A DNA stretch of 64,000 nucleotides, from the IMG/VR virus record IMGVR_UViG_3300021959_007005. One strand, 5' to 3'. Below, in pieces: positions 2,789 to 57,509 of this stretch. The notes under the pieces are model-generated. The model was not told the origin of the DNA. It ran no database searches and saw only the letters and a program-made list of their open reading frames with translations. Both the position numbers and the translations under genes were made by a program. The stretch is from a virus (taxonomy: Duplodnaviria; Caudoviricetes). The stretch's first letter is position 1. Every line of letters starts with the position of its first letter.

Positions 2789-4723
2789 ATGAGACTTAAT
2801 GAATTAACAGAAGCATTAGATAATCCATATCCATACACCTGGTACGAGCGTAGTAATGATACATGGACTGCATATGCAGAATTGAATTCAGAACGTTCAT
2901 CTGATGGAAGAGATGACGAAGACGCAACACTTAGAATAATAGCTGACAGAGTTTCAGGCGGTGATGACTGGGACGATGATGAGCGTGTGGTTCCTACCAT
3001 TTGGGAACTTAGCTTTATGACTGGTTATAAAACTCACAAGACCGGTGCAGGTGATCAATTTAGAATTTTTGCTACAGTGGTTGCCGCATTTACTGATTGG
3101 TGGAAACAAATGGGATCAAAAGTAAATGATATTGACGAACTTGAATTTACCGCAGATAAAGCAAAAGATGGTAAAAGCAGAGCAGTACTATATGCTAGAT
3201 TTGCTAAAAAGTTTGCACAAATGACTGGCTTTAATTTAGAAACTAAGCAAGATAGTTATCAGGATGTCTTTACGTTTGTAAATCCACAAAGTAGTTTTGC
3301 TGAGGCTTCAGTTACTGAAGTATCAAAAGAAGAGTTTGATGCTATTCAGAATGGATACGTTGATATTGAGTTTGATAAGAAGTGGTGGCCACTAGACGAT
3401 GATTACCCACTGATCAAACATATCGGTAAAGCAATCGGCGCAACTAGTTGGACTAGTTGGGGTAAAGTTGGTGTCCCATGGTCAGAAAAAGAAATGATCG
3501 GTGGCGGTGGCACATATATGCTTAAAGGTGATTTCGGTCATATCTTGTTGGATGCGGCTAAGAGTTTTAGCCCAGAACAAATTTTAATGGCACAAATATC
3601 AACTTCTAATCGTGGTGGTGGCGTCGGCGTTAAAGTTATGAACGCAATAAAGTCATATGCCGATCAAAAGGGTTTGCCAATAACAATATATAAAGTAACT
3701 AATCAGAAGTTTTTTGACAAGTTTGAATGGTTAGAAAAGACAGGTGCTGATACATACGAATATAAACTTAGTAGTTTTGCTGAGGCTTCAGTTACTGAAG
3801 AGGTAAGTCTTCCAGAAGATATCTTTCATATGAAAAACAGATTGCTAAAAGTTAAAAAAATAACTGATGCAATGGGTAATCGTCCAATAATGTTTAGAAG
3901 TTTTGTATATGACGCAGATCGTATTGGAAAAATTATTAAAAAGGTAACTAATGATAGTGGCAGAAAAATAAAAACTGGAAGCAATCAAAAACAACAAGAA
4001 GTCTTACAAAAACTTGGTGTCAACAATCCAACATTTGCAAACCTTGCAGCAGGAAAGCATGCAGATGTTCGCAGAACCTCACTTGAGGATCATGGGGTAG
4101 CTGGATTGCAAAACATTTTTATCCCAATAAGCAACGAAATATATTACAGTGATGCAGTTGAAGACTTGGGCATGGGTCGCTCAACAGGTGGAAAAAATAT
4201 TTCATTGCAAAGTGACTTTGATGTAGATAAAGCAGTAGCCAGTTATAAAAAAGGGTGGCCACCTGCTGGATTTGATAACGAAATAATTGTAGATACTGAT
4301 AAGTATTATCTTCTAAACTTGCAGTCTTTTTTATTAGAACTAACAAGTCCTGATATTAAAGATCAGATTAAACGTTTAAAAAGAGAATATGATAAGTCAT
4401 ATTCTAGCAATGCATCAAAAAATCAGGTCGATGATATTTTAAAAGATCTGTTTAAAACAAAAATAATGACATATAGTAATATATCACGCTGGATCGAAAG
4501 TGTTGCTATTCCTTTTGTAGATATGCTTGGAGCCAGTAGTGTACAAGAAAACTTTGCTGACGGTAAAGTAAAAGGCAAAAGTAGACCAGGGCGTGTAAAA
4601 CGTAGTGGTGCAAGTTGTAATGGTAGTGTAACAGAACTAAGAGCCAAAGCAAAAAAAGCCAGCGGTGAAAAAGCAAAAATGTATCACTGGTGCGCCAACA
4701 TGAAGGCTGGTAAGAAGAAATGA
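2789..4723 (+). CDS. Modular putative internal head polyprotein (unknown, GNAT-like, ART-like and basic Cys/His modules)
   Basis: MRLNELTE leader; linker SSFAEASVTE occurs twice; NRGGGVGVKVMNAIKSYAD resembles GNAT motif A; C-terminal ENFADGKVKGKSRPGRVKR...MYHWCANMK. Confidence 0.55.
   Translation: MRLNELTEALDNPYPYTWYERSNDTWTAYAELNSERSSDGRDDEDATLRIIADRVSGGDDWDDDERVVPTIWELSFMTGYKTHKTGAGDQFRIFATVVAAFTDWWKQMGSKVNDIDELEFTADKAKDGKSRAVLYARFAKKFAQMTGFNLETKQDSYQDVFTFVNPQSSFAEASVTEVSKEEFDAIQNGYVDIEFDKKWWPLDDDYPLIKHIGKAIGATSWTSWGKVGVPWSEKEMIGGGGTYMLKGDFGHILLDAAKSFSPEQILMAQISTSNRGGGVGVKVMNAIKSYADQKGLPITIYKVTNQKFFDKFEWLEKTGADTYEYKLSSFAEASVTEEVSLPEDIFHMKNRLLKVKKITDAMGNRPIMFRSFVYDADRIGKIIKKVTNDSGRKIKTGSNQKQQEVLQKLGVNNPTFANLAAGKHADVRRTSLEDHGVAGLQNIFIPISNEIYYSDAVEDLGMGRSTGGKNISLQSDFDVDKAVASYKKGWPPAGFDNEIIVDTDKYYLLNLQSFLLELTSPDIKDQIKRLKREYDKSYSSNASKNQVDDILKDLFKTKIMTYSNISRWIESVAIPFVDMLGASSVQENFADGKVKGKSRPGRVKRSGASCNGSVTELRAKAKKASGEKAKMYHWCANMKAGKKK
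3290..3320 (+). repeat. 31-bp perfect direct repeat, copy 1
   Basis: agtagttttgctgaggcttcagttactgaag, identical at 3770-3800. Confidence 0.97.
3770..3800 (+). repeat. 31-bp perfect direct repeat, copy 2
   Basis: Identical to 3290-3320, 480 bp apart and in frame. Confidence 0.97.
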
Positions 4724-4908
4724 GATTTCGAGAACTAACTGAAGATGGAAAAATTGTTCCAGGGGTAAATACTACAGTTGATGTACAACCTGGCGAAACT
4801 GAAAGACAAGCAAAGAAATTGTTTCCTATGAATAAAGACGGAAAGCCCAAGCCATTGGGTGTAAAAGGTGCTACGCCTCATCAAGCATTTAACTTGGGAC
4901 TAGATTAA
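4720..4908 (+). CDS. Small hypothetical protein, putative head-targeted
   Basis: MRFRELTE leader; overlaps both neighbouring genes. Confidence 0.65.
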   Translation: MRFRELTEDGKIVPGVNTTVDVQPGETERQAKKLFPMNKDGKPKPLGVKGATPHQAFNLGLD

Positions 4909-5771
4909 TGAAGATTAACGAAATTTTTGAAAATATGAGTTATACTGGCACTGCATTAAAAAAAGCAGAGCGTAAAAAGGGTATACAGCCAGGGACGACT
5001 GAATGGTTCCAACATTGGTTTGAGTTGCCTTATATGAAAGAAGATGTGTCACAAGGACAATTAAATGCTTTAGAAAAAATTGTTGATAAAGTATTTGCTC
5101 GTGTTGGTATTGATGTGGAATTTACACGTCACTTTTTAGATAGAGTAAATGATGAACGTAACGGCGAGCCTATTAGTATACAAGAGTTGGGAAGATTATT
5201 TGCTAAAGAATATAAGCAATGGGGGAAGCCAATTGCACAAATGGGTCCAAACCAAGCAATAATGAAAGATTTAGAAAGTGATATTAATGTACCATTTGTA
5301 TTAGAAATTAACCCACGTACTAAAATGCTTGACTTAGTTGCCAAGAGTGTTATGCGTAAGAAAGATTTCAGAACAAGTAATAAGGTATTTGCTGTTGAAG
5401 ACTTTGGCAGTTTGCCTAGTTTAGTAGATTTAATTTTACTTGCTGTTGCACTAAAGACAACAGTAGCTGGTGTCAGAGTATTGTTCAAAACTGCACAAGG
5501 ATATAGAAAATTACTTCGTGCTGCAGATTCAGTTGGTGTTAAACTAGCAAACAAACTGCAAAGAGAAGATACTAAAGATGAAATGATGGATAGAATTTTG
5601 GCTAGTCAAAAGAATCGTTTTTGGGATGCCGCAGTAGAAGCATTGCATCGTTTAGTAACATCACAGTCAGGACGCCAAAGTTTAGGCGGTTATGCATTTG
5701 ATATTTCTAAAAGTTTCAAAGATATGGATTCTAAAGAACTGATATCTGCATATAGACAAAAATATTCATAG
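4908..5771 (+). CDS. Modular hypothetical protein with FTRHFLDRVNDERN domain
   Basis: 287-aa ORF, MKINEIFE leader, internal xxE-delimited modules. Confidence 0.65.
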   Translation: MKINEIFENMSYTGTALKKAERKKGIQPGTTEWFQHWFELPYMKEDVSQGQLNALEKIVDKVFARVGIDVEFTRHFLDRVNDERNGEPISIQELGRLFAKEYKQWGKPIAQMGPNQAIMKDLESDINVPFVLEINPRTKMLDLVAKSVMRKKDFRTSNKVFAVEDFGSLPSLVDLILLAVALKTTVAGVRVLFKTAQGYRKLLRAADSVGVKLANKLQREDTKDEMMDRILASQKNRFWDAAVEALHRLVTSQSGRQSLGGYAFDISKSFKDMDSKELISAYRQKYS

Positions 5772-5797
5772 ACTTACAAAAAAACACATGTTATAAT
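5769..5797 (+). promoter_or_regulatory. Sigma70-type promoter with extended -10
   Basis: TAGACT-N17-TATAAT with TG upstream of the -10, just before the 5817 ORF. Confidence 0.55.
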
Positions 5798-5816
5798 AAT
5801 TAAAAATGGAGTTACT

Positions 5817-6722
5817 ATGAAAATAGCTATAATGCTTAGTGGGCAAGCTAGATATCTCGAACAAAGTGCTGAATGGTGGCAAAAAGTGTTTCCTAAAATA
5901 ACTGGATCACATATAGAGGTTGATTTTTTCTGTCATTTTTGGGAAGAACCGGGAAGAGACTTATATGAAGAATGTCAACGCCTATTTAACCCAGTTAAAT
6001 GTTTTATACAGTCTTATGATGATGTTTTTTATCCACATATGTATGCTATTCAAAATCTAAATAAAAAATATGATAAGCATACGGAACTAGTACCTAACGA
6101 TGTTAGGTCTACTTTATTATTTCCAGGAAGTGAACTTAGTACATATGCATATAATTTTCATGCGATGTTTTTAAGTGCATCTGCAATAGGAAAAATGTGT
6201 GGAGAGTTGACTGAATATGACTTTGTTATTAAAACAAGAAGTGATACAGTGTTTAATCCAATGGCCGAACATCATTGGATGAATTTATTACACAATATGA
6301 GAAAAGATATATACAACAATATTATATTTTCTCCTTGGATGCGTTTACATAACGGAAGCGGCTATTTTGGTGATTTGGCATTTATTTCTGCTCCATCTAC
6401 TATGTATAGATATTTAAAAAACTTAGACGATAATCTTATTAATGTGTGTACCAAATATAAATTTCTGTTTGGTGAAAGATTAATAGAATCTAGCTCTCCA
6501 ATTGCCCATTGGATGTGGCATAGATTAAGTATGGAATCTAAGGTTGATTGGCTTGCAATTAGTGTAGTTTGGCCTACACCATTTAATGCAGCATTAATAA
6601 GGAATAACGAACCAGTTACTAATTTTGATTTTGATACTATGCTAGAAAAGTATAAAAATGAAGAGGATTCGAGACATGCGGAAATGCATAAAAAAGATCT
6701 TATTAAACCAAGGTCAACTTAG
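5817..6722 (+). CDS. Hypothetical protein, putative glycan-modifying enzyme
   Basis: MKIAIMLSGQAR start, DFFCHFW and DFVIKTRSD pattern seen in surface-polysaccharide-associated proteins. Confidence 0.45.
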   Translation: MKIAIMLSGQARYLEQSAEWWQKVFPKITGSHIEVDFFCHFWEEPGRDLYEECQRLFNPVKCFIQSYDDVFYPHMYAIQNLNKKYDKHTELVPNDVRSTLLFPGSELSTYAYNFHAMFLSASAIGKMCGELTEYDFVIKTRSDTVFNPMAEHHWMNLLHNMRKDIYNNIIFSPWMRLHNGSGYFGDLAFISAPSTMYRYLKNLDDNLINVCTKYKFLFGERLIESSSPIAHWMWHRLSMESKVDWLAISVVWPTPFNAALIRNNEPVTNFDFDTMLEKYKNEEDSRHAEMHKKDLIKPRST

Positions 6723-6733
6723 CGGACAATTAG

Positions 6734-6741
6734 TATAAATA
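6734..6741 (+). promoter_or_regulatory. T4-type late promoter motif
   Basis: Exact TATAAATA in the intergenic gap before 6747. Related (A/C)TAAATA at 2757, 12868, 39480, 42642, 49365 and on the minus strand before 60663. Confidence 0.55.
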
Positions 6742-6746
6742 ACTAT

Positions 6747-6941
6747 ATGAAAGTCTGGGAAGTCATAAAAGAAGATACTACTTCTGGCGTATTTGCCAGT
6801 GTTGCTATGCCACTGTTTACAGGAAAAAAAGGCAAAGCACATCACAAGGCTGCACGAAAAGCAGTAGGATTAGAAGACACAGGAAAAAACAAACCTGTTG
6901 TTCCAGGCTATCCAAATAACATGATTCGGAGAGTCAAATGA
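6747..6941 (+). CDS. Small hypothetical protein, putative head-targeted
   Basis: MKVWEVIKEDTTSG leader. Confidence 0.65.
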   Translation: MKVWEVIKEDTTSGVFASVAMPLFTGKKGKAHHKAARKAVGLEDTGKNKPVVPGYPNNMIRRVK

Positions 6942-7405
6942 GACTAAACACATTAAACACAAATAAAGCGCCTAAAGCAGTACCAATGGTTGTCAAAGAA
7001 AATGCTGGGTATGCAGTTAAAGATATAAATGGTATTACAAGGAAACTATTTGACGATATTGATATTGCAAATCATTATATGAAACGTCACAATAAAGAAC
7101 TTAGAGAAGGTGTCGAGCCAGTTGTATACATGAGTGAAATTATGGAAGGTGTTCTTGATAGCACTGACGATGATGGATGGATGGCAAAAGGACAACTATA
7201 TCAACTTAGTAAGTATAGTGTAGAGTTACACGGAATGATTCAAGACACGGATAATTTAGAGCCTTGGGTACAAGCAAAAATTACTAAAGCAGCAGATTAT
7301 ATTAGTGCAGTTAAACATTATATGGAATATCTAGTAATTAATGATCAACAATCTGACGCACCAGTAGTAATAGATGACCTTCCTGACGACGAATTTGAAA
7401 TGTAA
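6938..7405 (+). CDS. Hypothetical modular phage protein
   Basis: ORF with overlapping start/stop; DNLEPWVQAKITKAADY motif. Confidence 0.65.
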   Translation: MRLNTLNTNKAPKAVPMVVKENAGYAVKDINGITRKLFDDIDIANHYMKRHNKELREGVEPVVYMSEIMEGVLDSTDDDGWMAKGQLYQLSKYSVELHGMIQDTDNLEPWVQAKITKAADYISAVKHYMEYLVINDQQSDAPVVIDDLPDDEFEM

Positions 7406-9102
7406 TGCGTTTTACGGAGTTCACTGATCTAACTGAAGGCCTCCCTGCTTTAAATCAAGGTGGGGTGTTTGGCTCTGGGTTAGATCCACAGCAATTCCAA
7501 CAACGCTACGGGGTTTCTGCAGCTAATGCATCAAACGCAGTTAAGAATGTAGTTAAATTATCGCCGGGATTTAAAAGTCCCCAAATGAAAAATGCACTAC
7601 AGAGTTATTTTTTAGAAAACCCTAAATCACTTCAAGCAGCTAATCAAAATTTCAACCCACAAGGTCAATTAAAATCAAACGTAAAGCCTGGATTATTCAA
7701 AGGGTTGCTAGGTAAAGCATTTGGTGCCATTGGATTAATATTCACTCCTAGTGCTACAAACCAGGGAGAAGACCAAGCAGTAAGACAAATGGAAGCTGTT
7801 TGGAAATTTACAAGATATTTGTTAAAAAATGCACCCAAGGAATACATTAAGTTTTATAATGATGAATGGGATGCATTAACCCCAAAAGAAAAAGAAACAA
7901 ACGCACAATGGAACCCAACAGAGTCTGACGAATATAAGCAAGCTCAAGAAATAGTACGTATGTTAGGCAAAAATACTACTGATTTTTCTCCTAACGAAGA
8001 TCCCACCCCAGATGAAGTTAGCCCACAAGTCCAACCAGATTGGTGGCCGGAGGATTTACCTTTTAATCCAGAGACATTGCCAGAGCCAGATACTCGTCCT
8101 GAAACGAAACCAATAACACAACCGGATATTCCTACTGTACCAGAGAAACCAACAACACCAGAACCAGATGACGCACCAGAACCAAAAGTTAATCCAAAGT
8201 CTCCTGATGTAGATCCAACTCCTCCGAAGCAACCAAGCGATCCAAAAATAGAACCAGACAAAAAACCTCAATCAGAACCAATAACGCCGCCTAAGTTTCC
8301 AGGTATTCCTGTACTACCTGATGCGCCTGGGCCTGAGACACCATTGGAAATTCCAGAACCAGATGTGGATCCAACTTCTCCGGAGCAACCAATAGTACCT
8401 GATCCACTGCCAGTACCGGGACCTGAATTAGATCCTAAAGCACCGGAACAGCCACTGACACCAGAAGTGCCTGATAATGCTCCAATTGTGCTTCCTAGAA
8501 TTTCGCCAGACGCTGATCCGCAATTTGATCCAACCCCAATGCCTGTTATTCCTCTACCGGATCCATCACCAGTACCTAGTACAACTCCATCAGATCCAGC
8601 AGCACCACCTAAGCCACAACCCAAACCAGAGCCTGGGCCTAATATAAATCCGCTGGCACCTTCTCAACCAAACACTCCAAAAATAGATCCAAATACTAAT
8701 CCTAAATCAGACCCAATTACACAACCAGATATTCCTACTACGCCAGCTCAACCGGAAGCTCCTAAACCAGATGATGCACCAGCAACTCAGCCTGCACCAA
8801 AGCCAGCACCTAAGCCAGTACCGAAACCTAAGCCAGCACCGAAACCTAAGCCAGTACCGAAACCTAAGCCAGCACCGAAACCAAAACCCAAGCCTGCACC
8901 CAAAGTTGCACCTACACCTAAGGTACAACCAATACCTAAAACTGGTGGGGGAAGAGGTGGTAGGCCACCACGTATAAGACCACGTAAAAGAATCGGGTTA
9001 CCTCCATTTAGTGCAAAGGGTGATAACAAAAAATGGGTACCATTTGATTTTGTAAACGTAAGAGATCCGTTAGATCTTGGCAGAGCGGCAAGACGTAGCT
9101 AA
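7405..9102 (+). CDS. Proline-rich low-complexity protein
   Basis: 565 aa with a long Pro/Asp/Glu then Pro/Lys region; C-terminal WxxFxxVxVxDPLxLxRA motif. Confidence 0.75.
   Translation: MRFTEFTDLTEGLPALNQGGVFGSGLDPQQFQQRYGVSAANASNAVKNVVKLSPGFKSPQMKNALQSYFLENPKSLQAANQNFNPQGQLKSNVKPGLFKGLLGKAFGAIGLIFTPSATNQGEDQAVRQMEAVWKFTRYLLKNAPKEYIKFYNDEWDALTPKEKETNAQWNPTESDEYKQAQEIVRMLGKNTTDFSPNEDPTPDEVSPQVQPDWWPEDLPFNPETLPEPDTRPETKPITQPDIPTVPEKPTTPEPDDAPEPKVNPKSPDVDPTPPKQPSDPKIEPDKKPQSEPITPPKFPGIPVLPDAPGPETPLEIPEPDVDPTSPEQPIVPDPLPVPGPELDPKAPEQPLTPEVPDNAPIVLPRISPDADPQFDPTPMPVIPLPDPSPVPSTTPSDPAAPPKPQPKPEPGPNINPLAPSQPNTPKIDPNTNPKSDPITQPDIPTTPAQPEAPKPDDAPATQPAPKPAPKPVPKPKPAPKPKPVPKPKPAPKPKPKPAPKVAPTPKVQPIPKTGGGRGGRPPRIRPRKRIGLPPFSAKGDNKKWVPFDFVNVRDPLDLGRAARRS
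8809..8880 (+). repeat. 4 x 18-bp tandem repeat (PKPVPK/PKPAPK)
   Basis: cctaagccag(t/c)accgaaa x4 with alternating variants. Confidence 0.93.
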
Positions 9103-25197: not shown

Positions 25198-26274
25198 ATG
25201 AAACTATTAAAACTATTGGCTGCTACACTAGTAGTGGCAGCTGTAGGCGTTTCTGCAAGTGCAGATGCTCCTAAGGATAAAGCAAAAGTCGCATTTATTT
25301 ACGTTGGCCCAACAGGTGATCACGGTTGGACATATCGTCACGATATTGGTCGTCAGCAAGTAGAAGAAGCATACGGAGATCGTGTCGAAACTACGTTTGT
25401 TGAAAGTGTAGCAGAAGGTGCTGACGCTGAACGTGTAATGACACAAATGGCACTACAGGGCGCAGACATTATTTTTGCGACATCATTTGGATATATGGAT
25501 CCAATAATGAACGTAGCAAAGAAGTTTCCAAACGTAAAGTTTGAACATGCTACAGGTTATAAATCATCTGACAACGTTGCTAACTATGGTTTGAAACTAT
25601 ACCAAGCAAGACACGTACAAGGTGTTGTAGCAGGTATGATGACAAAAACAAACAAAATTTGTTATATTGCTTCATTCCCAATTCCAGAAGTTATGCGTGA
25701 GATTAACACATTCTTCTTGGGCGCACGTAAGTATAATCCAGATGTAGAACTATCAATTGCGTGGGTTTACACATGGTATGATCCAGGCAAAGAAAAAGAT
25801 GCGGCTGTGGCTCTGATCCAACAAGGTTGTGACATTGTAGCACAACACACTGACTCACCTGCTCCGCTACAAGCGGCAGAACAAGCAGGTGTACTTGGTT
25901 TTGGACAAGCAAGTGATCAAATGAAGTTTGCTCCTAACGCACAATTGACAGCAACTATTGACAATTGGGGTCCTTACTACATCGACAAAGTAGGACAAGT
26001 ACTAGATGGTACATGGGAAACAGGCGATTACTTTGGACATATGAACGAAGGTGCTGTACAAATGGCACCATTTGCTAATATGCCAGCTGATGTACAAGCA
26101 GAAGCACAACGTGTAAAAGATGCTATTAGCGCAGGCGAGTTGTTTGGATTTACAGGTCCAATTAACAAGCAAGACGGAACAGTGTTCCTGAAAGAAGGTG
26201 AAGTAGCAACGAGACAGCAACTAGACACTATGATGTTTTATGTCGAAGGCATCACATCACAGGTACCTGGTTAA
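25198..26274 (+). CDS. BMP-family ABC transporter substrate-binding protein (purine/nucleoside type)
   Basis: Signal peptide; VAFIYVGP.GD.GW, FATSFGY, TWYDPGKE and AQHTDS motifs. Confidence 0.9.
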   Translation: MKLLKLLAATLVVAAVGVSASADAPKDKAKVAFIYVGPTGDHGWTYRHDIGRQQVEEAYGDRVETTFVESVAEGADAERVMTQMALQGADIIFATSFGYMDPIMNVAKKFPNVKFEHATGYKSSDNVANYGLKLYQARHVQGVVAGMMTKTNKICYIASFPIPEVMREINTFFLGARKYNPDVELSIAWVYTWYDPGKEKDAAVALIQQGCDIVAQHTDSPAPLQAAEQAGVLGFGQASDQMKFAPNAQLTATIDNWGPYYIDKVGQVLDGTWETGDYFGHMNEGAVQMAPFANMPADVQAEAQRVKDAISAGELFGFTGPINKQDGTVFLKEGEVATRQQLDTMMFYVEGITSQVPG

Positions 26275-27654: not shown

Positions 27655-28860
27655 ATGGCAAACTTAGTAGTAATAGGAACCCAATGGGGCGATGAAGGCA
27701 AAGGCAAAGTAGTTGATTTACTAGCAGAACAAGCAGATGTTATAGTACGTTTTCAAGGAGGACATAACGCAGGGCATACACTGGTAATAGGTGACAAAGT
27801 TTTTAAACTTAGCTTACTGCCCAGCGGTATAGTAAGAGAAGATAAAGTTTCGGTTATTGGTAACGGTGTTGTATTGAATCCTTGGAAACTATTAGAAGAG
27901 ATTGAACTAGTACAGTCACAAGGTGTAAACATTGATCCTAGTAGATTGATGATTGCAGAAAACACTCCGCTAATTTTACCCTATCACCAAGCATTAGATC
28001 AGTCAAGAGAAGAAGTAACTGATAAAAAAATCGGTACTACTGGCAGAGGCATTGGTCCTGCATATGAAGATAAAGCAGGAAGACGTGCAATTAAAGTAGG
28101 AGATCTTAGAGATGATGAACTACTCAAACATAGACTAGCAATAGCCGCAGAGTATCACGACTTTGACCAACAACAGTTGTTTAATCAGCTAGCACATATC
28201 AAAAAACATGTATTACAATATGTAAATGATGTACCACTTTATCTAAATCAAAAGACTGACTTAGGATTTAATATATTATTCGAAGGCGCACAAGGAAGCA
28301 TGCTAGATGTAGACTTTGGCACTTATCCTTATGTAACAAGCTCAAACACACTAGCAGGTATGGCTAGTATAGGCTCAGGGGTACCGCATAATAAGATACC
28401 AAATGTAATTGGTATAACAAAAGCATACACAACTCGAGTTGGCGAAGGGCCAATGACGACTGAATTATTTGATGATGTTGGAGAGCATCTAGCAAGTGTA
28501 GGTAAAGAAAAAGGTACAGTAACTGGTAGAAGCAGACGCTGTGGATGGTTTGATGTATCACAAGTAAAACGAACATGTATGTTAAATGGTGTTACTGGCA
28601 TAGCATTAATGAAAATAGACGTACTCGATAAACTCGAGACTATTAAGATTTGTACTGACGTACACAACGGAATACCAGTGTATGAAGAGCTACCTGGTTG
28701 GTGTACTAGTACAATAGGTATAACTGATTATTCAGATTTACCAAGACTTGCTCAAGAGTATATTAACCGTATTGAGCAATTAACACAAACCGAAGTAGTT
28801 TTGATATCAACTGGACCAGAAAGAGATCAAACTATTTTATTACAAGATTCTTTCTTTTAG
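27655..28860 (+). CDS. purA: Adenylosuccinate synthetase
   Basis: QWGDEGKGK, GGHNAGHT, GTTGRGIGP, EGAQG and TVTGRSRRCGW motifs. Confidence 0.95.
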   Translation: MANLVVIGTQWGDEGKGKVVDLLAEQADVIVRFQGGHNAGHTLVIGDKVFKLSLLPSGIVREDKVSVIGNGVVLNPWKLLEEIELVQSQGVNIDPSRLMIAENTPLILPYHQALDQSREEVTDKKIGTTGRGIGPAYEDKAGRRAIKVGDLRDDELLKHRLAIAAEYHDFDQQQLFNQLAHIKKHVLQYVNDVPLYLNQKTDLGFNILFEGAQGSMLDVDFGTYPYVTSSNTLAGMASIGSGVPHNKIPNVIGITKAYTTRVGEGPMTTELFDDVGEHLASVGKEKGTVTGRSRRCGWFDVSQVKRTCMLNGVTGIALMKIDVLDKLETIKICTDVHNGIPVYEELPGWCTSTIGITDYSDLPRLAQEYINRIEQLTQTEVVLISTGPERDQTILLQDSFF

Positions 28861-28894: not shown

Positions 28895-29515
28895 ATGTTA
28901 GGATTTTTTAAAGATATTGACAGAAGCATGTTGCTGAAACTAGTAGCACTACATGTAATTGTTATCGTAGTAAGTAACGCACTAGTAAGTATTCCAGTAG
29001 AAATTTTTGGAATTAAACTTACCTGGGCTGCATTTACATTTCCGTTAGTTGTACTAGCAACTGACTTAACAGTACGAATGTTAGGTAAAAACATTGCACG
29101 TTCAACAATTGCGGCAGCTTATCCGTTGGCAATTATTGGCTCAATTTTAGTTGTAATGGCGGAGGGTGCACCAAGTAGTGTAGCAATGCGTATTGGTTTA
29201 GCTAGTGCAACAGCATATGCAGTTGGCACAATGTTGGATGTATATGTATTTCAATACCTACGTGAAAACTTTATGAAGCATTGGTGGATTGCGCCAGCAG
29301 TATCAACTGTAGCGGCAAACGTCATTGACACATACACATTCTTTTGGGTTGCGTTCAACAACAGTGCAGACGAATATATGGCTGCAAACTGGGTAGAGAT
29401 CGCAGGATCACAAGTTGTGATTAAGATTGCAGTAGGACTTATTATCTTCCTACCAGCATACGGTGTGCTATTACGTTACTTAAATGGTAAACTTTCAGAA
29501 GAAGACGCCGAATAA
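28895..29515 (+). CDS. yhhQ: Queuosine precursor (preQ0/preQ1) transporter, VUT family
   Basis: SN.LV..P, TWAAFTFP, TDLTVR..G and IDTYTFF..AF motifs; multi-pass membrane protein. Confidence 0.9.
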   Translation: MLGFFKDIDRSMLLKLVALHVIVIVVSNALVSIPVEIFGIKLTWAAFTFPLVVLATDLTVRMLGKNIARSTIAAAYPLAIIGSILVVMAEGAPSSVAMRIGLASATAYAVGTMLDVYVFQYLRENFMKHWWIAPAVSTVAANVIDTYTFFWVAFNNSADEYMAANWVEIAGSQVVIKIAVGLIIFLPAYGVLLRYLNGKLSEEDAE

Positions 29516-30471: not shown

Positions 30472-31164
30472 ATGTATTTTATCAGTGCGCCATTTGGCAA
30501 TTATTTACAGTACACAAACTTTCTAAGTGGCAAACCAATAGTCAGTGTTACTGGAACATTTACGGTGAAGCCACGTCCTGGACTAGCAAAACAAATTATA
30601 AAAACACTTAGGTATACTAGAACAGGCTGGCGCAACAAACTAGGTTTGCGTAACCCAGGAATATTTAAGGGGTTGGACAACACTGCACCACACAATGTAA
30701 TGAGTATTGCTAGTTTGGAACCAAATGATTGGCGTATACTATATGAAATAGTGCCCAAGCATCAGAATGTAGAACTTAACATAAGTTGCCCAAATGTAGA
30801 TGAACATCCAGACTTAACTAAAGCATTTGCAAAAGATCAACGCTTCTGGTGCATTGTAAAAGTACCACCAACTATAACAAACAAACAGATTGACAAAATA
30901 GTTAAACTAGGCTATAATCAAATACATGCAAGCAATACTATTCCAACAGCGAAAGGTGGACTTAGTGGTGATGTAATTGTACCACACACTTTGAGAATAC
31001 TAGAATACATAAAAAGTACACATCCTCATGTTGAAGTTATCGCAGGCGGCGGAGTAAAAGATAAAGCTAGTGTTGATAGATATATTAACGCTGGAGCAGA
31101 TCATATTAGTATAGGCAGTGTATGTTTTACTCCTTGGCGTATTAAAGGAATTATAAATGATTAA
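30472..31164 (+). CDS. pyrD: Dihydroorotate dehydrogenase-like flavoprotein (short class 1)
   Basis: ELNISCPN (catalytic Cys), SNT, GGLSG and AGGGV motifs. Confidence 0.78.
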   Translation: MYFISAPFGNYLQYTNFLSGKPIVSVTGTFTVKPRPGLAKQIIKTLRYTRTGWRNKLGLRNPGIFKGLDNTAPHNVMSIASLEPNDWRILYEIVPKHQNVELNISCPNVDEHPDLTKAFAKDQRFWCIVKVPPTITNKQIDKIVKLGYNQIHASNTIPTAKGGLSGDVIVPHTLRILEYIKSTHPHVEVIAGGGVKDKASVDRYINAGADHISIGSVCFTPWRIKGIIND

Positions 31165-34557: not shown

Positions 34558-35649
34558 ATGAACAACTATATCTTTACAAGCGAAAGCGTTAGTGATGGAC
34601 ACCCAGATAAAATAGCAGATCAAATCAGTGATGCACTAGTAGATGCCGGACTAACCAATGGCGACGAAACAACTCGTGTAGCTATTGAAACACTTGTAAC
34701 CACTAACCATGTAACGTTAGCGGGCGAAGTAAAAAACTTTAACGTAAGCAAAGACAAGGTAAAACAAATCGTTCGTGACAAAGTTAAAGAGATTGGTTAT
34801 GAACAAGAAGGATTTCATTGGGATAACTTGCGTATCTACAATGAGATTCACTCACAAAGTGGAGACATTGCGCTAGGCACAGACGACTTTGGTGCAGGAG
34901 ATCAAGGACTAATGTTTGGCTATGCTTGTAATCATACAGACAGTATGATGCCAGCACCTATTCATTACAGCCATGAGATACTAAAGAACTTGAAAAGCAA
35001 ACGTGGTGCTATACTAGGACCAGATGCTAAGAGTCAAGTAAGTGTAGAGTACTATGGTGCTCGAAGAGATGGTATAATTAAACGTATTGACCAAGTTGTA
35101 ATAAGTACTCAGCATACTGAAGGTAATGTAGAGGAAGCTAGACATCTTTGTAAACTTTCAGCAATGGAAGAACTTGGAGATTTAGTGGATGACAACACTA
35201 TATGGCATCTTAATCCTACAGGTAATTTTGTTATCGGTGGTCCTGACGGCGATGCTGGTGTCACAGGAAGAAAGATTATCGTGGACACTTATGGCGGTTT
35301 CGCTCCTCATGGTGGCGGTGCTTTTAGTGGCAAGGATCCTACTAAAGTCGACCGCTCTGCAGCCTATATGGCTCGTTGGCTTGCTAAAAATGTTGTAGCA
35401 GATAATATGGCAGACTGGTGTAATATCCAATTAAGTTATGCTATTGGTGTTAAAGAGCCCACAAGCATTTATGTTGATAGTAACGGGCACAACGCTAGTA
35501 TTGCTAAGTTTATTGAACGTGAGATTGATTTAACTCCAAAAGGAATTATTGACAGATTTGACTTGTTTAACTATACCAACTACAGCAAAAATTGTGTATA
35601 TGGACACTTTGGTGCTAAAGATGTTCCTTGGGAGAAAATTGGATGGTAA
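34558..35649 (+). CDS. metK: S-adenosylmethionine synthetase
   Basis: FTSESVSDGHPDK, GAGDQG, GRKIIVDTYGG and GGGAFSGKD motifs. Confidence 0.97.
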   Translation: MNNYIFTSESVSDGHPDKIADQISDALVDAGLTNGDETTRVAIETLVTTNHVTLAGEVKNFNVSKDKVKQIVRDKVKEIGYEQEGFHWDNLRIYNEIHSQSGDIALGTDDFGAGDQGLMFGYACNHTDSMMPAPIHYSHEILKNLKSKRGAILGPDAKSQVSVEYYGARRDGIIKRIDQVVISTQHTEGNVEEARHLCKLSAMEELGDLVDDNTIWHLNPTGNFVIGGPDGDAGVTGRKIIVDTYGGFAPHGGGAFSGKDPTKVDRSAAYMARWLAKNVVADNMADWCNIQLSYAIGVKEPTSIYVDSNGHNASIAKFIEREIDLTPKGIIDRFDLFNYTNYSKNCVYGHFGAKDVPWEKIGW

Positions 35650-36863: not shown

Positions 36864-37057
36864 AAAACGCAGAATCGCAACGTATTCAAGATAGCGAAGA
36901 ACGTAGACAAGCTATGAAAAAAGAACGCCGGCAGCAAGAAGGCGAAATTATTCATCAAATTAAACAACCTAAAAAAATATACAAAGGCCGTAGTTTTAGT
37001 GGAATTGAAACTTCTTCAGGTACAGTTAATCGTGGGAAGGATTGGTACTCAAAATGA
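36860..37057 (+). CDS. Hypothetical protein
   Basis: ORF with overlapping stop/start. Confidence 0.6.
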   Translation: MKNAESQRIQDSEERRQAMKKERRQQEGEIIHQIKQPKKIYKGRSFSGIETSSGTVNRGKDWYSK

Positions 37058-37749
37058 AAAACATTAAAGACGTGCTGTTTATAGTACAAGCAAGGACTAA
37101 TAGTCAACGTGTACCTGCAAAAATGACAAGAGAATTTGCAGGTACTTGTCTATTTGAGATATTCATTAATAAGATTAAACAAACCAATATACCAATGGAA
37201 AACTTTTACGCAAGTGTTTGCGATCAAGAACTTATTGATATATGTAACAAACATGAAGTTAACATATTTAATCGCAGTTTAGCGTCACGCAACAGCGAAA
37301 ATGATTTAGTACAAATGTACGAATGGTGGGACAAATTTCCACAATACAAGTATGTTGTATTATTCAATCCATGTTTGCCATTCTTAAGCGTAAATACTAT
37401 AAATCAGTTTGTAGATCAATATGTTAGTAGTGAGCACGATGGCCTTTTTGGTGTTATGTCTAAAAAGCAATACTATTGGAACACCCAAGGTGAAATGATC
37501 ACACCCTGGCCAGCTGGTGTAACTATTATGAACACCAAAGTAGTAGAACCTACACTTGAAGCTGCACATGCATTATACGCTGGAAGACTTGATCTAATTG
37601 GCCAAGAGCGTTGGATGGGTGACTTTACAAAAAACAATCCTGCACTATTTGAAATGAAAGAGTTCGAATGCCTTGATATTGATTACGAATGGCAATTCGA
37701 AGTATATACAACTTATTGGGAAAAACATTATGGTAAAAACAATAGCTGA
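37054..37749 (+). CDS. neuA: CMP-nonulosonate (acylneuraminate) cytidylyltransferase
   Basis: QARTNSQRVPAK and final LDID..WQF motif; next to neuB. Confidence 0.82.
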   Translation: MKNIKDVLFIVQARTNSQRVPAKMTREFAGTCLFEIFINKIKQTNIPMENFYASVCDQELIDICNKHEVNIFNRSLASRNSENDLVQMYEWWDKFPQYKYVVLFNPCLPFLSVNTINQFVDQYVSSEHDGLFGVMSKKQYYWNTQGEMITPWPAGVTIMNTKVVEPTLEAAHALYAGRLDLIGQERWMGDFTKNNPALFEMKEFECLDIDYEWQFEVYTTYWEKHYGKNNS

Positions 37750-38539
37750 AATTGGCATCAATCACAACGGTGATTTAGGGTTATGCAAAGAAATGATCAC
37801 ACTCGCAAAAAAAGCAGGTGCTGATTATGTAAAATTTCAAAAGCGTGATCCGAATGTTTGTGTACCAGAAGATCAAAAGTCTAAATTAAGAGATACTCCT
37901 TGGGGAGAAATGACATACCTTGAGTACAAGCATCGTATTGAGTTCAATGACGAGTTTTATGAAATTGATCAACATTGTAAAGAAGTAGGAATCAATTGGT
38001 TTGTAAGTGTATGGGATACAAATAGTATTCAGTTTATGGCTAATAATTTTGATACTAGTATAGTAAAAGTACCAAGTGCAAAAGCCACAGACACTGAAAT
38101 TTTAAATATGTGCAATGCCATATATGGTACAGTAATAGTAAGTACTGGTATGTGTACACTGGAAGAAATTGAACAAATTGTTAGATATGTAGACAAGAAT
38201 AAACTTGTACTAATGCACACTGTAAGTACATATCCAGCAAAGACGGCAGATCTACACATTGACACAATTGATTACTTAAAACGTTATCAGGTTCCTGTTG
38301 GATATAGTGGACATGAGTTGGGTAAATTTATTTCAGCTGCACTTGCTCTAAAGGATATTGACTGGCTAGAGCGTCATTTTACTAGTGACAAAACACTGTG
38401 GGGGACTGATCAAAGTTGTAGCTTAGAAACACACGAACTTAAAGAGCTCATAGGAAATATGCAGATGCTCGAGAAGGCACGTGGTACTAGAGTTGGTGTA
38501 TTAGAATGTGAAATCCCGATACTAGAGAAACTAAGGTAA
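37730..38539 (+). CDS. neuB: Nonulosonic acid (NeuB-family) synthase, lacking the C-terminal SAF domain
   Basis: IAEIGINHNGD, VKFQ, KVPS, STGM, MHTVSTYP, GYSGH and ERHFT motifs. Confidence 0.92.
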   Translation: MVKTIAEIGINHNGDLGLCKEMITLAKKAGADYVKFQKRDPNVCVPEDQKSKLRDTPWGEMTYLEYKHRIEFNDEFYEIDQHCKEVGINWFVSVWDTNSIQFMANNFDTSIVKVPSAKATDTEILNMCNAIYGTVIVSTGMCTLEEIEQIVRYVDKNKLVLMHTVSTYPAKTADLHIDTIDYLKRYQVPVGYSGHELGKFISAALALKDIDWLERHFTSDKTLWGTDQSCSLETHELKELIGNMQMLEKARGTRVGVLECEIPILEKLR

Positions 38540-38549
38540 TTTAGTATAA

Positions 38550-39476
38550 ATGCATTTAAATAGAGATCTGGCAATTTTAATTCCAGGATTAACTTACGGT
38601 GGTAGTAAAAGTTCTGAATTTTTATCACATTGTGAACAAATCACAAATCAACTAAACAAAGGTAACATTAATGATGTTACTTTTTATATTAGTACGTGGG
38701 ATCATAAAAATAATAATACACATGATTTAATAACTGCAATTGAAAATTTTGGTTTTAAGTATAAATTAGATATAGAAACTTATCAAACATTTGATCAAAT
38801 CATACATGAAATAATATATGAAGATATGCCAGAGTTTGGAAAGCTCTGGGACAAATGGCTACACGAAGATTTACTCAAAGCTTCACAATGTTCAGCAGTT
38901 GACTACAAGCGTAGACATCTATCGATATACTATAAATTTTATAAAGTGTTTTATATGACACAACACGAACACCTAATTGTTAGGACCAAATCAAACAACG
39001 GAGTCAATCTACCAATACTAGATCTATTAGATTCTCTAGAAGAAACATTAGAATGGAATCAAACAAACAATAAGTTTAAACAACCTAGTAATTTCAATAA
39101 AGAATTAGGAAACGCAAATGAACTTATTAAATATGATAACTGGATATCATGTAACATTGATGGAGTGAGTAACAATGGTCTTGTAAAAGTCAATGAAAAT
39201 GGAATATTTGGATTAAGACCTGTTTTTGAACACAGGATATTTAACTATAATTCACCTAAGGAATTTATACTTAATGGTATAGCGTCTATATACTATCAGC
39301 AGTTCTTGGATAATTTTACAGCATCACAATTAAATAAAAATTTGTCAATGCCGCCTATAGCTAGTGGTAGTTTAGTGTGGGGTCAATATTTTACTAGCAA
39401 ACGTATACAGATACACCCAGTCTGGGCGTCTGCAAATCCTTTCTCTAAAGATGGACAGGTTCATAAAATGTACTAA
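38550..39476 (+). CDS. Hypothetical protein, putative glycosyltransferase-like
   Basis: LAILIPG..FYISTWD..IVRTKS layout similar to the 5817 ORF; follows neuAB. Confidence 0.4.
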   Translation: MHLNRDLAILIPGLTYGGSKSSEFLSHCEQITNQLNKGNINDVTFYISTWDHKNNNTHDLITAIENFGFKYKLDIETYQTFDQIIHEIIYEDMPEFGKLWDKWLHEDLLKASQCSAVDYKRRHLSIYYKFYKVFYMTQHEHLIVRTKSNNGVNLPILDLLDSLEETLEWNQTNNKFKQPSNFNKELGNANELIKYDNWISCNIDGVSNNGLVKVNENGIFGLRPVFEHRIFNYNSPKEFILNGIASIYYQQFLDNFTASQLNKNLSMPPIASGSLVWGQYFTSKRIQIHPVWASANPFSKDGQVHKMY

Positions 39477-39564
39477 ATGATAAATAAATAGATGGAAAAA
39501 TAAAGCTCAATTTTTTTTGAGCCAATTTTTTTTAGGCTGAATTAACTAAAAAGGAAAAAGATAA

Positions 39565-40437
39565 ATGACGCAACTCATAAACCCACGAAAATTTACACAA
39601 ACAGTTGGCCTTTTAAGGTCATTTTTTTTGGACAAAGGATTCTTGGAAGTCCACACCCAAAACAGACTAAGCATACTTGCCGCATGTGAAGATCCATTCA
39701 ATGTAGCAACGTACAATTACGCAGGCAACACTTGGCCACTACCCCAAACAGGCCAGATGTGGTTAGAACATGAATTATTAAGTAGCCCCGATAGTAAGGG
39801 GTTTTTTTGTGTCTCCACTTCCTATAGACAAGAGCCAAATGCTATACCAGGCAGACACGATATTATCTTCCCAATGTTTGAATTTGAAATGCCAGGCAGT
39901 GTAGATGATCTCAAAGCAATGGAAATTGAACTGTGTGAATACTTAGGCTTTGATGCACTAACAGAAAAAACTTACAGAGAATGGCAACAGCATTGGGGTG
40001 TAAGTGCAGACACCGAAATGGATGACAGTCACGAAAAAGCTATGGAAATGAACTTTGGTAGTTGTTTGATTACTGACTTTCCAGAACTAACATCACCTTT
40101 CTGGAACATGGCACGTAACGATGATGGCGAAACTGCCAAGAAGATGGATGTTATACTAGGTGGTATGGAAACTATTGGATCAGCAGAACGCTCGTGTGAT
40201 GTTGATATGATGCGTGATACATTCCATAGCATTGTAGACGGAGAGTACGCAGAGTTGTTATTCAAACTATTCGGTAAAGAACGTGTAGAAGCAGAACTAG
40301 AAGAGTTTCTAAAGTTTGACTTCTTCCAAAGAGTAGGTGGCGGAATTGGTATTACACGTATGATCCCTGCACTAGAAAAAATAAATGCACTAAGTGAGCC
40401 AATGGGTATGATTCAACCCATGCTGCGTTCAGCATAA
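39565..40437 (+). CDS. Class IIb aminoacyl-tRNA synthetase paralog (AsnRS/AspRS catalytic domain only)
   Basis: Motif 1 RSFFLDKGFLEVHT, motif 2 TSYRQE..RH..FPMFEFE and motif 3 GGGIGITR; no N-terminal OB-fold; 290 aa. Confidence 0.88.
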   Translation: MTQLINPRKFTQTVGLLRSFFLDKGFLEVHTQNRLSILAACEDPFNVATYNYAGNTWPLPQTGQMWLEHELLSSPDSKGFFCVSTSYRQEPNAIPGRHDIIFPMFEFEMPGSVDDLKAMEIELCEYLGFDALTEKTYREWQQHWGVSADTEMDDSHEKAMEMNFGSCLITDFPELTSPFWNMARNDDGETAKKMDVILGGMETIGSAERSCDVDMMRDTFHSIVDGEYAELLFKLFGKERVEAELEEFLKFDFFQRVGGGIGITRMIPALEKINALSEPMGMIQPMLRSA

Positions 40438-40444
40438 AGTTTAT

Positions 40445-40547
40445 TCCAGCCTGGTGGAAATGGTAGACACGGCGGACTGTTTATCCGTTGATTAATAACT
40501 CGCAAAGTATTTAATCGTGCATGGTTCGAATCCTGCGGCTGGAGCCA
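40445..40547 (+). tRNA. Atypical tRNA-Asn(GTT) with a long variable arm and encoded CCA, 103 nt
   Basis: 7-bp acceptor stem TCCAGCC/GGCTGGA, G73, CCA; D-arm GTG..TGG..CAC; anticodon stem GCGGA/TCCGT with loop CT-GTT-TA; T-loop TTCGAAT. Confidence 0.85.
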
Positions 40548-40556
40548 AAACAAAAC

Positions 40557-40585
40557 TTGACAATACCCTCGATTGTTGCTATTAT
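40557..40585 (+). promoter_or_regulatory. Sigma70-type promoter for rnh
   Basis: TTGACA-N17-TATTAT, with TGC before the -10. Confidence 0.7.
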
Positions 40586-56551: not shown

Positions 56552-57509
56552 AAGTAGTAGCGGATATACCGTAGCTGCAAGAGTACTAACACCATATAAA
56601 GATATGAAGGAACAAGACTTTATTGATCTTGTACGTGAGTATGGTACTGTGGTGTGGAAAAAAGACACAGCTACGGTAGACGAATATATTGATTTTCAGA
56701 TGCGAGTAGGTTATCATCAAGCAGCAGAAATCTGGTGTAATGACGACAAGTATCCACAAATTTATCGTGTTACCAATCTTAAAGTAAAAGACGAACACGA
56801 ATCAGAAGGTTTGTTTGGACACGGAGAACTAGACTGGCACTGTAATATATTGTTTACACCTGATAGTGAGGAAATGGTGGGCTTACGGGCAGTTGAAATA
56901 CCCAAAGGAAGTCAAACAATTATGGCCAACAGTATTCCTTTTTGGAATAATCTAAGTGAAGAAAAGCGTGAATTATATGACACACTGCATTTGAGTATCA
57001 CAAATAAAATGGAAGACACGTATGAAAATCGTCTAGCACACTATGTACTACCTACTGCAGAGCTCAAAGACTTTGACAAAAAACGTGCAAGCAGAGCTAT
57101 ACAAAGAAGTTTAAACTATGATCAACCTGAAGACAAATTTGCTGAGCCACGTTTTGAAAAAACGAACACTCTTAAAATGATCAGTAGACATCCACTGGGT
57201 ACCAAAGGTGTATACTTTCCACATTTAAATCTAAGTTATATATGTGACAAAGATGGAAACAAACTGGAAAACCATCGTGAAATTTATGAAGAAATTAAAG
57301 CAGAATATATTGATAGTGATCAATATCATTATGCACATGAATGGGAAGTTGGAGACATTTGTTTTATGGAACAGCTAACAGGCGTTCATAGACGTAATAA
57401 TGTATGGTTAGAAAAAGGATTAGATCCAGAAACTGCCAAACGTGAATTACAACGTACTAGCTTCTGGTACAAAACACCTTATAGACTGCACACAGAACGA
57501 TGCATCTAA
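56532..57509 (+). CDS. TauD/TfdA-family dioxygenase
   Basis: LDWH, G.QT..AN, HPLG, WEVGD..F...HRR and RELQR motifs. Confidence 0.8.
   Translation: MKIEDIKSSSGYTVAARVLTPYKDMKEQDFIDLVREYGTVVWKKDTATVDEYIDFQMRVGYHQAAEIWCNDDKYPQIYRVTNLKVKDEHESEGLFGHGELDWHCNILFTPDSEEMVGLRAVEIPKGSQTIMANSIPFWNNLSEEKRELYDTLHLSITNKMEDTYENRLAHYVLPTAELKDFDKKRASRAIQRSLNYDQPEDKFAEPRFEKTNTLKMISRHPLGTKGVYFPHLNLSYICDKDGNKLENHREIYEEIKAEYIDSDQYHYAHEWEVGDICFMEQLTGVHRRNNVWLEKGLDPETAKRELQRTSFWYKTPYRLHTERCI

Follow-up and report, generated by a model that had tools for sequence, protein, structure and literature searches.

A 64,000-nucleotide (nt) stretch of marine phage DNA (Duplodnaviria; Caudoviricetes; IMG/VR record IMGVR_UViG_3300021959_007005), referred to here as the window, encodes at 40445–40547 (+) a 103-nt transfer RNA (tRNA) with a GUU anticodon, which starts 7 nt past the stop codon of a gene for a 290-amino-acid (aa) protein resembling asparaginyl-tRNA synthetase (AsnRS). 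Hundreds of ocean phages pass on this tRNA and its partner gene as a single cassette, and the tRNA is a structurally maintained, selected RNA, not a product of decay. We lean, tentatively, towards the view that it is a dedicated carrier of the asparagine (Asn) type that works with the upstream, pyrimidine-linked ligase and is not an ordinary decoder.

We examined the linkage from both sides. A search for relatives of the enzyme returned 80 IMG/VR loci at 78–96% identity, plus the cyanophages P-SSM2, P-SSM5 and P-SSM7, and a tRNA of the same design lies directly after the enzyme gene in 80 of the 84 sources. Three of the four exceptions end at a contig edge, and the fourth (L049) has a terminator and a promoter instead of the tRNA. 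A DNA pattern made from the tRNA alone also matched 80 IMG/VR loci; wherever the match was a family tRNA with room upstream, the enzyme gene lay just upstream on the same strand (66 of 66). Fourteen matches lacked the enzyme: none of the 11 that were checked is a family tRNA, and the other three lie at contig ends. The cassette stays together while the flanking genes differ between the window, P-SSM7, P-SSM2 and P-SSM5, and it is abundant in ocean viromes (at least 8,000 proteins of the enzyme family at E 0.001). An interpretation of the tRNA as an integration site (attP) was rejected: the tRNA has its full length, and in the T4-like and jumbo phage contexts no integrase lies near it.

The linkage bears on the simplest view of the GUU tRNA, namely that it is an ordinary supplementary phage tRNA-Asn, charged by the host, and that its position beside the enzyme reflects co-expression or a shared cassette ancestry. 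Its identity set (U1:A72, G73 and GUU) equals that of the host tRNA-Asn, phages of this lineage carry many tRNAs, and the phage genome is AT-rich (36.8% GC), all of which would suit a supplement. Nevertheless, linkage in 66 of 66 and 80 of 84 cases amid differing neighbours is too tight for chance, the same phages readily carry canonical tRNA genes, and the unusual body, U37 and T-stem bulge described below would be left unexplained. We consider an ordinary supplement distinctly unlikely.

In the window, the 7-bp acceptor stem (40445–40451 paired with 40537–40543) opens with U1:A72 and is followed by the discriminator G73 (40544) and an encoded CCA (40545–40547). U8 is present, followed by a 3-bp D-stem (GUG/CAC) enclosing an 11-nt loop of the leucine type, GAAAUGGUAGA. 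The 5-bp anticodon stem carries the loop CUGUUUA (40477–40483, +), with U33, the anticodon G34-U35-U36 at 40479–40481 and U37 at 40482. The 30-nt variable region (40489–40518, +) folds into a 6-bp outer stem (GAUUAA/UUAAUC), of which the three outer pairs covary, a 2x2 internal loop, a 3-bp inner stem (ACU/AGU) and a CGCAA loop. In the T-arm (40519–40536, +; GCA-U-GG/UUCGAAU/CCUGC) a U at 40522 is bulged. A sequence-only reading of the window had described Asn identity elements (U1:A72, G73, GUU and CCA) on a class II body, with a variable arm of about 30 nt, a 3-bp D-stem, U37 and a T-stem bulge, and all of these were found. The context that proved decisive, namely the neighbouring AsnRS-like gene (recorded separately by the same reader) and its tie to pyrimidine synthesis, was not part of that description.

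The RNA thus has the shape of a class II tRNA, with a hairpin variable region of more than 10 nt, a 3-bp D-stem and an enlarged D-loop, but not the amino-acid identity (Leu, Ser, Tyr or Sec) that belongs to this class, since GUU and G73 are present in all of the 46 distinct sequences from which position counts were taken. Conversely, the identity set of bacterial tRNA-Asn (GUU, G73, U1:A72) is complete and invariant in the same sequences, whereas the class I body with a 4–5-nt variable loop and the purine (t6A) at 37 of bacterial tRNA-Asn are missing: every member has a long arm, and the window copy has U37.

Gene finders, proposed by the sequence-only reading as a check, gave a divided answer. 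ARAGORN reported no tRNA gene over the window, and a whole-window Rfam scan with default filters did not pick the tRNA up. A local, more permissive Rfam scan matched RF00005 at 38.7 bits (E 8e-7), passing the gathering threshold of 29 bits, and our own covariance model (R1) scored 99.1 bits. The copy in the nearest record reaches 46 bits with RF00005. When run on homologs, ARAGORN mis-parsed many long-arm copies as Asp(atc) or Glu(ctc) and called the short-arm and cyanophage copies tRNA-Asn(gtt). The single-sequence folding energy of the window tRNA is ordinary (z = −0.99), and the case for a tRNA therefore rests on the comparison of homologs.

That comparison used an alignment (A1) of 43 distinct homologs. 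The cloverleaf is paired in 987 of 987 cells, as against only 38–62% in slid controls, and in 17 of the 23 pairs both sides have changed in a compensatory manner. Covariation scored 0.459, compared with 0.142 in shuffled alignments, and none of 500 shuffles reached it. Pairs of the D-stem covary, as do, freely, those of the acceptor and anticodon stems; in the T-stem, four of the five pairs are invariant across the family. The earlier argument that perfect stems speak against decay is therefore borne out, and the compensatory changes in homologs that it had proposed to look for are present. That the RNA is a tRNA pseudogene in decay, or serves the enzyme mRNA only as an element for 3′ processing or stability, might have been suspected from its escaping ARAGORN and the whole-window Rfam scan, but complete pairing, 17 covarying pairs and an invariant anticodon and acceptor end bring these explanations close to refuted.

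Sequencing error, the other way in which the oddities might have been dismissed, is also excluded. U37 and the T-stem bulge recur together in a further four IMG/VR contigs, which stem from different samples (L004–L006 and L009), and an RNA-library contig matches 39501–40561 with zero differences, which rules out an artefact. The RNA-library contigs that cover the cassette are no proof of transcription, transcript ends or processing, as DNA carry-over is possible, and a run without cover over the tRNA (X3) carries no weight as evidence. The bulge is confined to this small clade (the window and the four contigs), other homologs having a plain 5-bp T-stem. Within the clade, pair 7:66 has undergone a compensatory C:G to G:C swap, which indicates that the copies are independent and living.

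Across the family, U1:A72 and G73 are present in 46 of 46 sequences, as is U33-G34-U35-U36, and C2:G71 occurs in 39 of the 43 homologs. G18G19 and the T-loop are canonical and conserved. CCA is encoded in 44 of 46 sequences; it is missing from two cyanophage sequences, as it is from the host tRNA-Asn gene. Position 37, by contrast with this constancy, is unconstrained (U in 34 sequences, A in 10 and C in two), and variation in the anticodon loop touches only this position, plus 32 and 38 in some variants. U37 had been singled out as an oddity of the window tRNA; it is indeed present but not unique to it, a pyrimidine at 37 being the family rule (36 of 46). To our knowledge, a pyrimidine here is almost without precedent in tRNAs that read codons starting with A. 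A37 is retained in the host tRNA-Asn, in the canonical tRNA-Asn of a related phage and in the remaining long-arm tRNAs of the phages, so that among the long-arm tRNAs of the lineage a pyrimidine at 37 is peculiar to the GUU RNA.

Because the changes in the anticodon loop are limited in this way, we considered whether the RNA could be a decoy or a nuclease-resistant substitute, directed at a host anticodon nuclease that targets tRNA-Asn, with U37 removing the t6A determinant. In its favour would count the proposal that mutated anticodon loops allow phage tRNAs to escape defences that cleave tRNAs (PMC10264068). However, A37 variants are common (10 of 46), these hosts have no known nuclease or defence context, and neither the obligate enzyme partner nor the class II body would be explained. 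The nuclease decoy put forward by the sequence-only reading hence gained no specific support, and we regard it as improbable.

The variable region measures 13–32 nt in homologs and always forms a hairpin. Two size classes are found, one with an arm of 3–4 bp closed by a GNRA tetraloop (GAAA, GCAA, GUAA or GUGA) and one with 7–12 bp and a GCAA-containing loop; the cyanophage arm consists of 5 bp with a UGGC loop. That the tip is conserved while the arm varies in length suggests a contact point.

The RNA looks chimeric. Its D-arm is of the type found in the tRNA-Leu(UAA) of these phages (L064 6350–6436), whose D-arm is nearly identical (UGGUGGAAUAGGUAGACAC) and which also has a long variable arm, while the acceptor end and the anticodon arm match a bacterial tRNA-Asn. 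The phage tRNA-Leu differs in having A73 and a Leu anticodon, where the GUU RNA has U1:A72, G73 and an Asn anticodon. This mixture raises the possibility of recoding, in which seryl- or leucyl-tRNA synthetase (SerRS or LeuRS) would charge the GUU tRNA through its long arm and insert Ser or Leu at AAY codons; the long arm, the 3-bp D-stem with its D-loop near-identical to that of tRNA-Leu(UAA), and G73, also the discriminator of tRNA-Ser according to textbooks, are in keeping with it. Yet G73 is invariant where bacterial LeuRS needs A73, and U1:A72 with mostly C2:G71 (39 of 43) stands in place of the G1:C72/G2:C71 of tRNA-Ser (both textbook rules); the arm has only 3 bp in many family members; replacing Asn by Ser proteome-wide would be harmful; and the partner enzyme is AsnRS-like. 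The earlier suggestion of a recoded class II tRNA of Leu or Ser type that misreads AAY has accordingly fallen, since the Asn-type acceptor end is kept and the RNA is locked to that enzyme, and we judge recoding highly improbable.

The partner gene (39565–40437, +) encodes the class IIb catalytic core of an AsnRS-like enzyme. Its only Pfam match is tRNA-synt_2, the catalytic core of class II Asp, Asn and Lys synthetases, and NCBIfam asnS (TIGR00457) gives it 33 bits, where the cut-off is 342.6. The 290 aa align to the catalytic part only, and the N-terminal OB-fold anticodon-binding domain is absent. An AlphaFold2 model built from 48 diverse family members reached a pLDDT of 94.4, and Foldseek places the catalytic domains of AsnRS and of archaeal/eukaryotic-type aspartyl-tRNA synthetase (AspRS) at the top of its matches. 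Against the PDB, AsnRS is the best match of the family profile (E 1e-14), with weaker matches to the archaeal AsnRS-like asparagine synthetase (3P8T, E 8e-7) and EpmA (3A5Y, E ~7e-5 to 9e-5). The full class II motifs are retained. The enzyme sequence ...QMWLE aligns with QLYLE of AsnRS as opposed to QLYKQ of AspRS, and the first Glu of its FEFE is Glu in AsnRS and Asp in AspRS; as aligned, the amino-acid pocket is AsnRS-like and not AspRS-like. The Glu of the RHxxEF motif is replaced, so the pocket resembles that of AsnRS without being identical to it.

Such an enzyme could form a private charging pair with the tRNA. On this account a mini-AsnRS makes Asn-AMP, charges the GUU tRNA by way of its acceptor end and class II body, and the product decodes AAY; the phage would gain direct Asn charging in hosts without AsnRS, or a tRNA-Asn resistant to host nucleases. 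Pocket residues matching AsnRS and the complete class II motifs are what this account would require of the enzyme. On the side of the RNA it can point to the canonical and conserved U1:A72, G73, GUU, U33, G18G19 and T-loop, to a CCA that is encoded or, in the cyanophages, absent as in the host's own tRNA genes, and to the other long-arm tRNAs of the lineage, which lie in ordinary arrays and are apparently decoders. The GUU RNA is, moreover, the only tRNA of the complete P-SSM2 genome, there are Prochlorococcus genomes without asnS, and a single canonical tRNA-Asn was met with across ~1.07 Mb of related contigs. Set against these points are the pyrimidine at 37 in 36 of 46 variants, at a position that varies freely, the T-stem bulge in the window clade, the fusion of the enzyme family to pyrimidine genes with its motifs unchanged, and the presence of a canonical tRNA-Asn in one related phage. 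We regard the private pair, the main rival of the carrier, as possible but doubtful.

The canonical tRNA in question is a 76-nt tRNA-Asn(GUU) with U1:A72, G73 and A37, located within a nine-tRNA array (L094 1763–1838, −; G002:C1:101265–101337). The same 133-kb fragment of a related jumbo phage (G002) also has the odd GUU tRNA, at 56953–57049, 43 kb away. No further canonical tRNA-Asn was found in the ~1.07 Mb of related contigs, a sample biased to the cassette's own neighbourhood.

The host side was explored in three complete Prochlorococcus genomes (MIT 1012, SS51 and MIT 9302) and in Synechococcus RCC307 (G006–G009). None of these four genomes has an asnS above the curated cut-off, the matches obtained being lysyl-tRNA synthetase (LysRS) and AspRS; AsnB-like genes are present in three of them, and none was found in MIT 9302. 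In a host without AsnRS, Asn-tRNA is made by a non-discriminating AspRS, which reads GUU and G73, together with GatCAB, which reads U1:A72. In Prochlorococcus without asnS, tRNA-Asn must therefore use AspRS and GatCAB. The tRNA-Asn of MIT 1012 (L308) is of class I, with U1:A72, G73 and A37, and its CCA is not encoded. The elements read by AspRS and GatCAB are exactly those that are invariant in the phage RNA, despite a partner enzyme that has no anticodon reader, and an invariant GUU under these circumstances fits reading by a host synthetase. The acceptor stems otherwise differ (UGUGAGG in the phage RNA and UCCUCGG in the host tRNA), so that the phage RNA does not mimic the host tRNA more broadly.

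An exhaustive search for the enzyme (447 clusters at 50% identity, E up to 1e-10) revealed a link to pyrimidine synthesis. P0124 (661 aa) consists of a class-1 dihydroorotate dehydrogenase (PyrD) followed by the enzyme domain, at 55% identity by phmmer and 50% in alignment A3; it occurs on seven contigs and adjoins an OMP-decarboxylase gene. P0142 (588 aa) has the enzyme domain followed by OMP decarboxylase (PyrF), at 47% by phmmer and 44% in A3, and adjoins PyrE and PyrD. In A3 the motifs WPLPQTGQMWLE, STSYRxEPNxxPGRH, FPMFEFE, ETIGSAERSC and PRxGGGIG are near-identical in tRNA-linked, fused and stand-alone forms, which indicates that the tRNA-linked and pyrimidine-fused forms of the family probably share their chemistry. 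The fusion loci (L090–L093) contain no family tRNA. On one of them (L090), the PyrD–enzyme fusion (4001–5986) is followed by a conserved 584-aa protein without a Pfam family (5994–7748), and a 435-aa OMP-decarboxylase-containing gene that also matches PyrE lies beside it; the contig is rich in ORFans, has 35% GC and is probably viral. More distant homologs of the enzyme (P0227, P0190 and P0156), used as IMG/VR queries, recovered no loci, and a scan of the genome contigs with P0190 gave no match.

About 9 kb upstream of the cassette, the window itself encodes a short, divergent open reading frame (ORF) resembling dihydroorotate dehydrogenase (30472–31164, +; 230 aa), which scores 45 bits with Pfam DHO_dh (cut-off 27) and was found by tblastn with the PyrD of L093; its scores with the NCBIfam PyrD models are far under their cut-offs. 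This ORF and the enzyme may belong to one pathway, although the link is a weak one.

Taken together, four observations incline us towards the dedicated carrier: position 37 is free to vary, the window clade tolerates a bulge in the T-stem, a canonical tRNA-Asn can coexist with the odd one (in G002), and the enzyme motifs are unchanged from the pyrimidine-fused forms. A non-ribosomal carrier was one of three functions proposed by the sequence-only reading; it has proved viable and is the one that we favour, if only with the reserve expressed at the outset. As we picture it, the tRNA would be loaded with Asn either by the host's non-discriminating AspRS and GatCAB or by the ligase, via Asn-AMP. 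Its asparaginyl-CCA end would then dock in the Asn/adenylate pocket of the ligase, so that tRNA and enzyme would meet at the acceptor end, and the activated Asn, exchanged with the adenylate, would feed a pyrimidine-linked chemistry, probably a route to dihydroorotate. The class II arm with its GNRA-type tip, the free position 37 and, in the window clade, the T-stem bulge would mark the RNA as the enzyme's own and, at the same time, make it a poor substrate for ordinary decoding. In a more specific version, the tRNA would provide an entry into pyrimidine synthesis: Asn would be loaded by host AspRS and GatCAB, the core would reverse the transfer to give Asn-AMP, and Asn-AMP with CO2 would yield dihydroorotate. 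Such a route, which we think unlikely in this form, would bypass carbamoyl-phosphate synthetase, aspartate transcarbamoylase and dihydroorotase.

Several points weigh against a dedicated carrier. Homologs at 31–46% identity, both phage-like (L086 and L088) and cellular (L084 and L085), have no adjacent tRNA, which implies that the enzyme generally needs no dedicated one, and the P-SSM2 and P-SSM7 genomes have no PyrD gene. An invariant anticodon, U33, a canonical elbow and an encoded CCA would also be expected of a decoder. Long-arm tRNA-Trp (85 nt) and tRNA-Ile (94 nt) occur in ordinary tRNA arrays of the same phage lineage; as these are apparent decoders, the extra arm alone is no sign of a non-ribosomal role. 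According to published identity rules, the large D-loop might hinder GatCAB. Finally, we know of no biochemistry for either the enzyme family or the tRNA.

The two long-arm tRNAs are unusual in their own right. The 85-nt tRNA-Trp(CCA) (L040 3105–3189, L054 1655–1739 and L064 6264–6348) has a 12-nt variable region, consisting of a 2-bp stem and a GUGA tetraloop, and a G1:U72 wobble, and replaces the usual 74-nt tRNA-Trp in the arrays. The 94-nt tRNA-Ile(UAU), with an extra arm of ~24 nt, is found in tRNA arrays at L047 4450–4543, L069 1407–1500, L078 4364–4457 and L095 1787–1880 and represents a further class I identity on a long-arm body. Both have A37.

The components of the cassette have been in GenBank since 2005–2010, as ‘tRNA-Asn’ and ‘tRNA ligase’ in P-SSM2 (AY939844), P-SSM5 (HQ632825) and P-SSM7 (GU071103). 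These cyanophages have the same cassette as the window, with enzymes 68–70% identical and tRNAs of 85–89 nt that share U1:A72, G73, the loop CUGUUUA, a 3-bp D-stem and an extra arm. They depart from the window in their 5-bp arm with its UGGC loop, a normal T-stem and a CCA that is not encoded. The records go no further than names: they assign no function and do not comment on the odd structure, and the ‘tRNA ligase’ has been listed as gene cluster 194, a sporadic host-like gene (PMC3037559). Our literature search found nothing on the cassette structure, the pairing of tRNA and enzyme, the pyrimidine link, truncated phage synthetases or a link between AsnRS paralogs and dihydroorotate. The cassette is a recurrent, uncharacterised system and no isolated case.

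Comparison with better-known systems places it apart from each of them. The bacterial tRNA-Asn, as in Prochlorococcus MIT 1012 or the phage array on L094, shares U1:A72, G73, GUU, U33 and a similar anticodon arm with the GUU RNA but is a class I tRNA of 72–76 nt, with a 5-nt variable loop, a 4-bp D-stem and A37, where the family has a Leu-type D-arm, an extra arm of 13–32 nt and mostly U37. Allo-tRNAs, which Mukai et al. reportedly described in 2017 as non-canonical tRNAs with a long arm, an acceptor/T-stem geometry of 8/4 or 9/3 and a variety of anticodons, likewise combine a long arm with the anticodon of a class I amino acid. The GUU RNA differs from them in having a 7-bp acceptor stem and a 5-bp T-stem (plus one bulge in the window clade) and no serine identity, in being phage-borne and in having a dedicated partner enzyme. 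The archaeal AsnRS-like asparagine synthetase (PDB 3P8T and 1NNH), EpmA/PoxA (3A5Y) and GluQ-RS resemble the partner enzyme as bare class II cores of the Asn/Asp/Lys group without an anticodon domain, although AsnRS proper is by far its better match; unlike it, these paralogs have neither a tRNA gene of their own nor a fusion to PyrD or PyrF.

Aminoacyl-tRNAs do serve metabolism outside translation: Glu-tRNA in haem synthesis, Asp-tRNA(Asn) in the GatCAB transamidosome and a non-proteinogenic tRNA-Gly in the staphylococcal cell wall. As would be the case for the proposed carrier, the aminoacyl-tRNA is here an activated intermediate, sometimes on an isoacceptor that decodes poorly. The carrier would differ from these examples in its link to pyrimidines, a link drawn from gene fusions and shared motifs, and we know of no tRNA-dependent step in pyrimidine synthesis.

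The surroundings of the cassette in the window include several genes of metabolism. Directly upstream, 37042–39476 (+) encodes a cytidylyltransferase, a NeuB-family synthase and a 308-aa protein of unknown function, and a cytidylyltransferase is encoded in P-SSM2 as well, four genes ahead of the cassette. A terminator-like hairpin (39505–39522) precedes the cassette. At 40557–40585 (+), 10 nt past the CCA of the tRNA, lies a near-consensus sigma-70-type promoter (TTGACA, a 17-nt spacer, TATTAT and a TG element), which probably drives the 5′–3′ exonuclease gene at 40613. Further upstream, the product of 27655–28860 (+) strongly matches PHROG 1211 (E 4e-120) and is adenylosuccinate-synthetase-like (PurZ-type), which may point to a metabolism of 2-aminoadenine or another modified purine in the phage. 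A PnrA/Bmp-like nucleoside-binding lipoprotein (25198–26274, +), a Vut_1/YhhQ-type transporter (28895–29515, +) and a SAM synthetase (34558–35649, +) are also encoded, and together with the ORF resembling dihydroorotate dehydrogenase they mark this part of the genome as a region of nucleotide and cofactor metabolism.

The maintained family described here breaks two rules of tRNA structure, that long arms are limited to Leu, Ser, Tyr and Sec tRNAs and that position 37 is a purine. Should the cassette prove to be self-charging, it would be a natural, compact orthogonal synthetase–tRNA pair with uses in engineering the genetic code, and phages would have in it a new means of coping with AsnRS-less hosts. 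If, instead, the tRNA feeds the enzyme, it would represent the first tRNA-dependent step in nucleotide synthesis. Experiments on the cassette are feasible in the cultured P-SSM2/Prochlorococcus NATL system.

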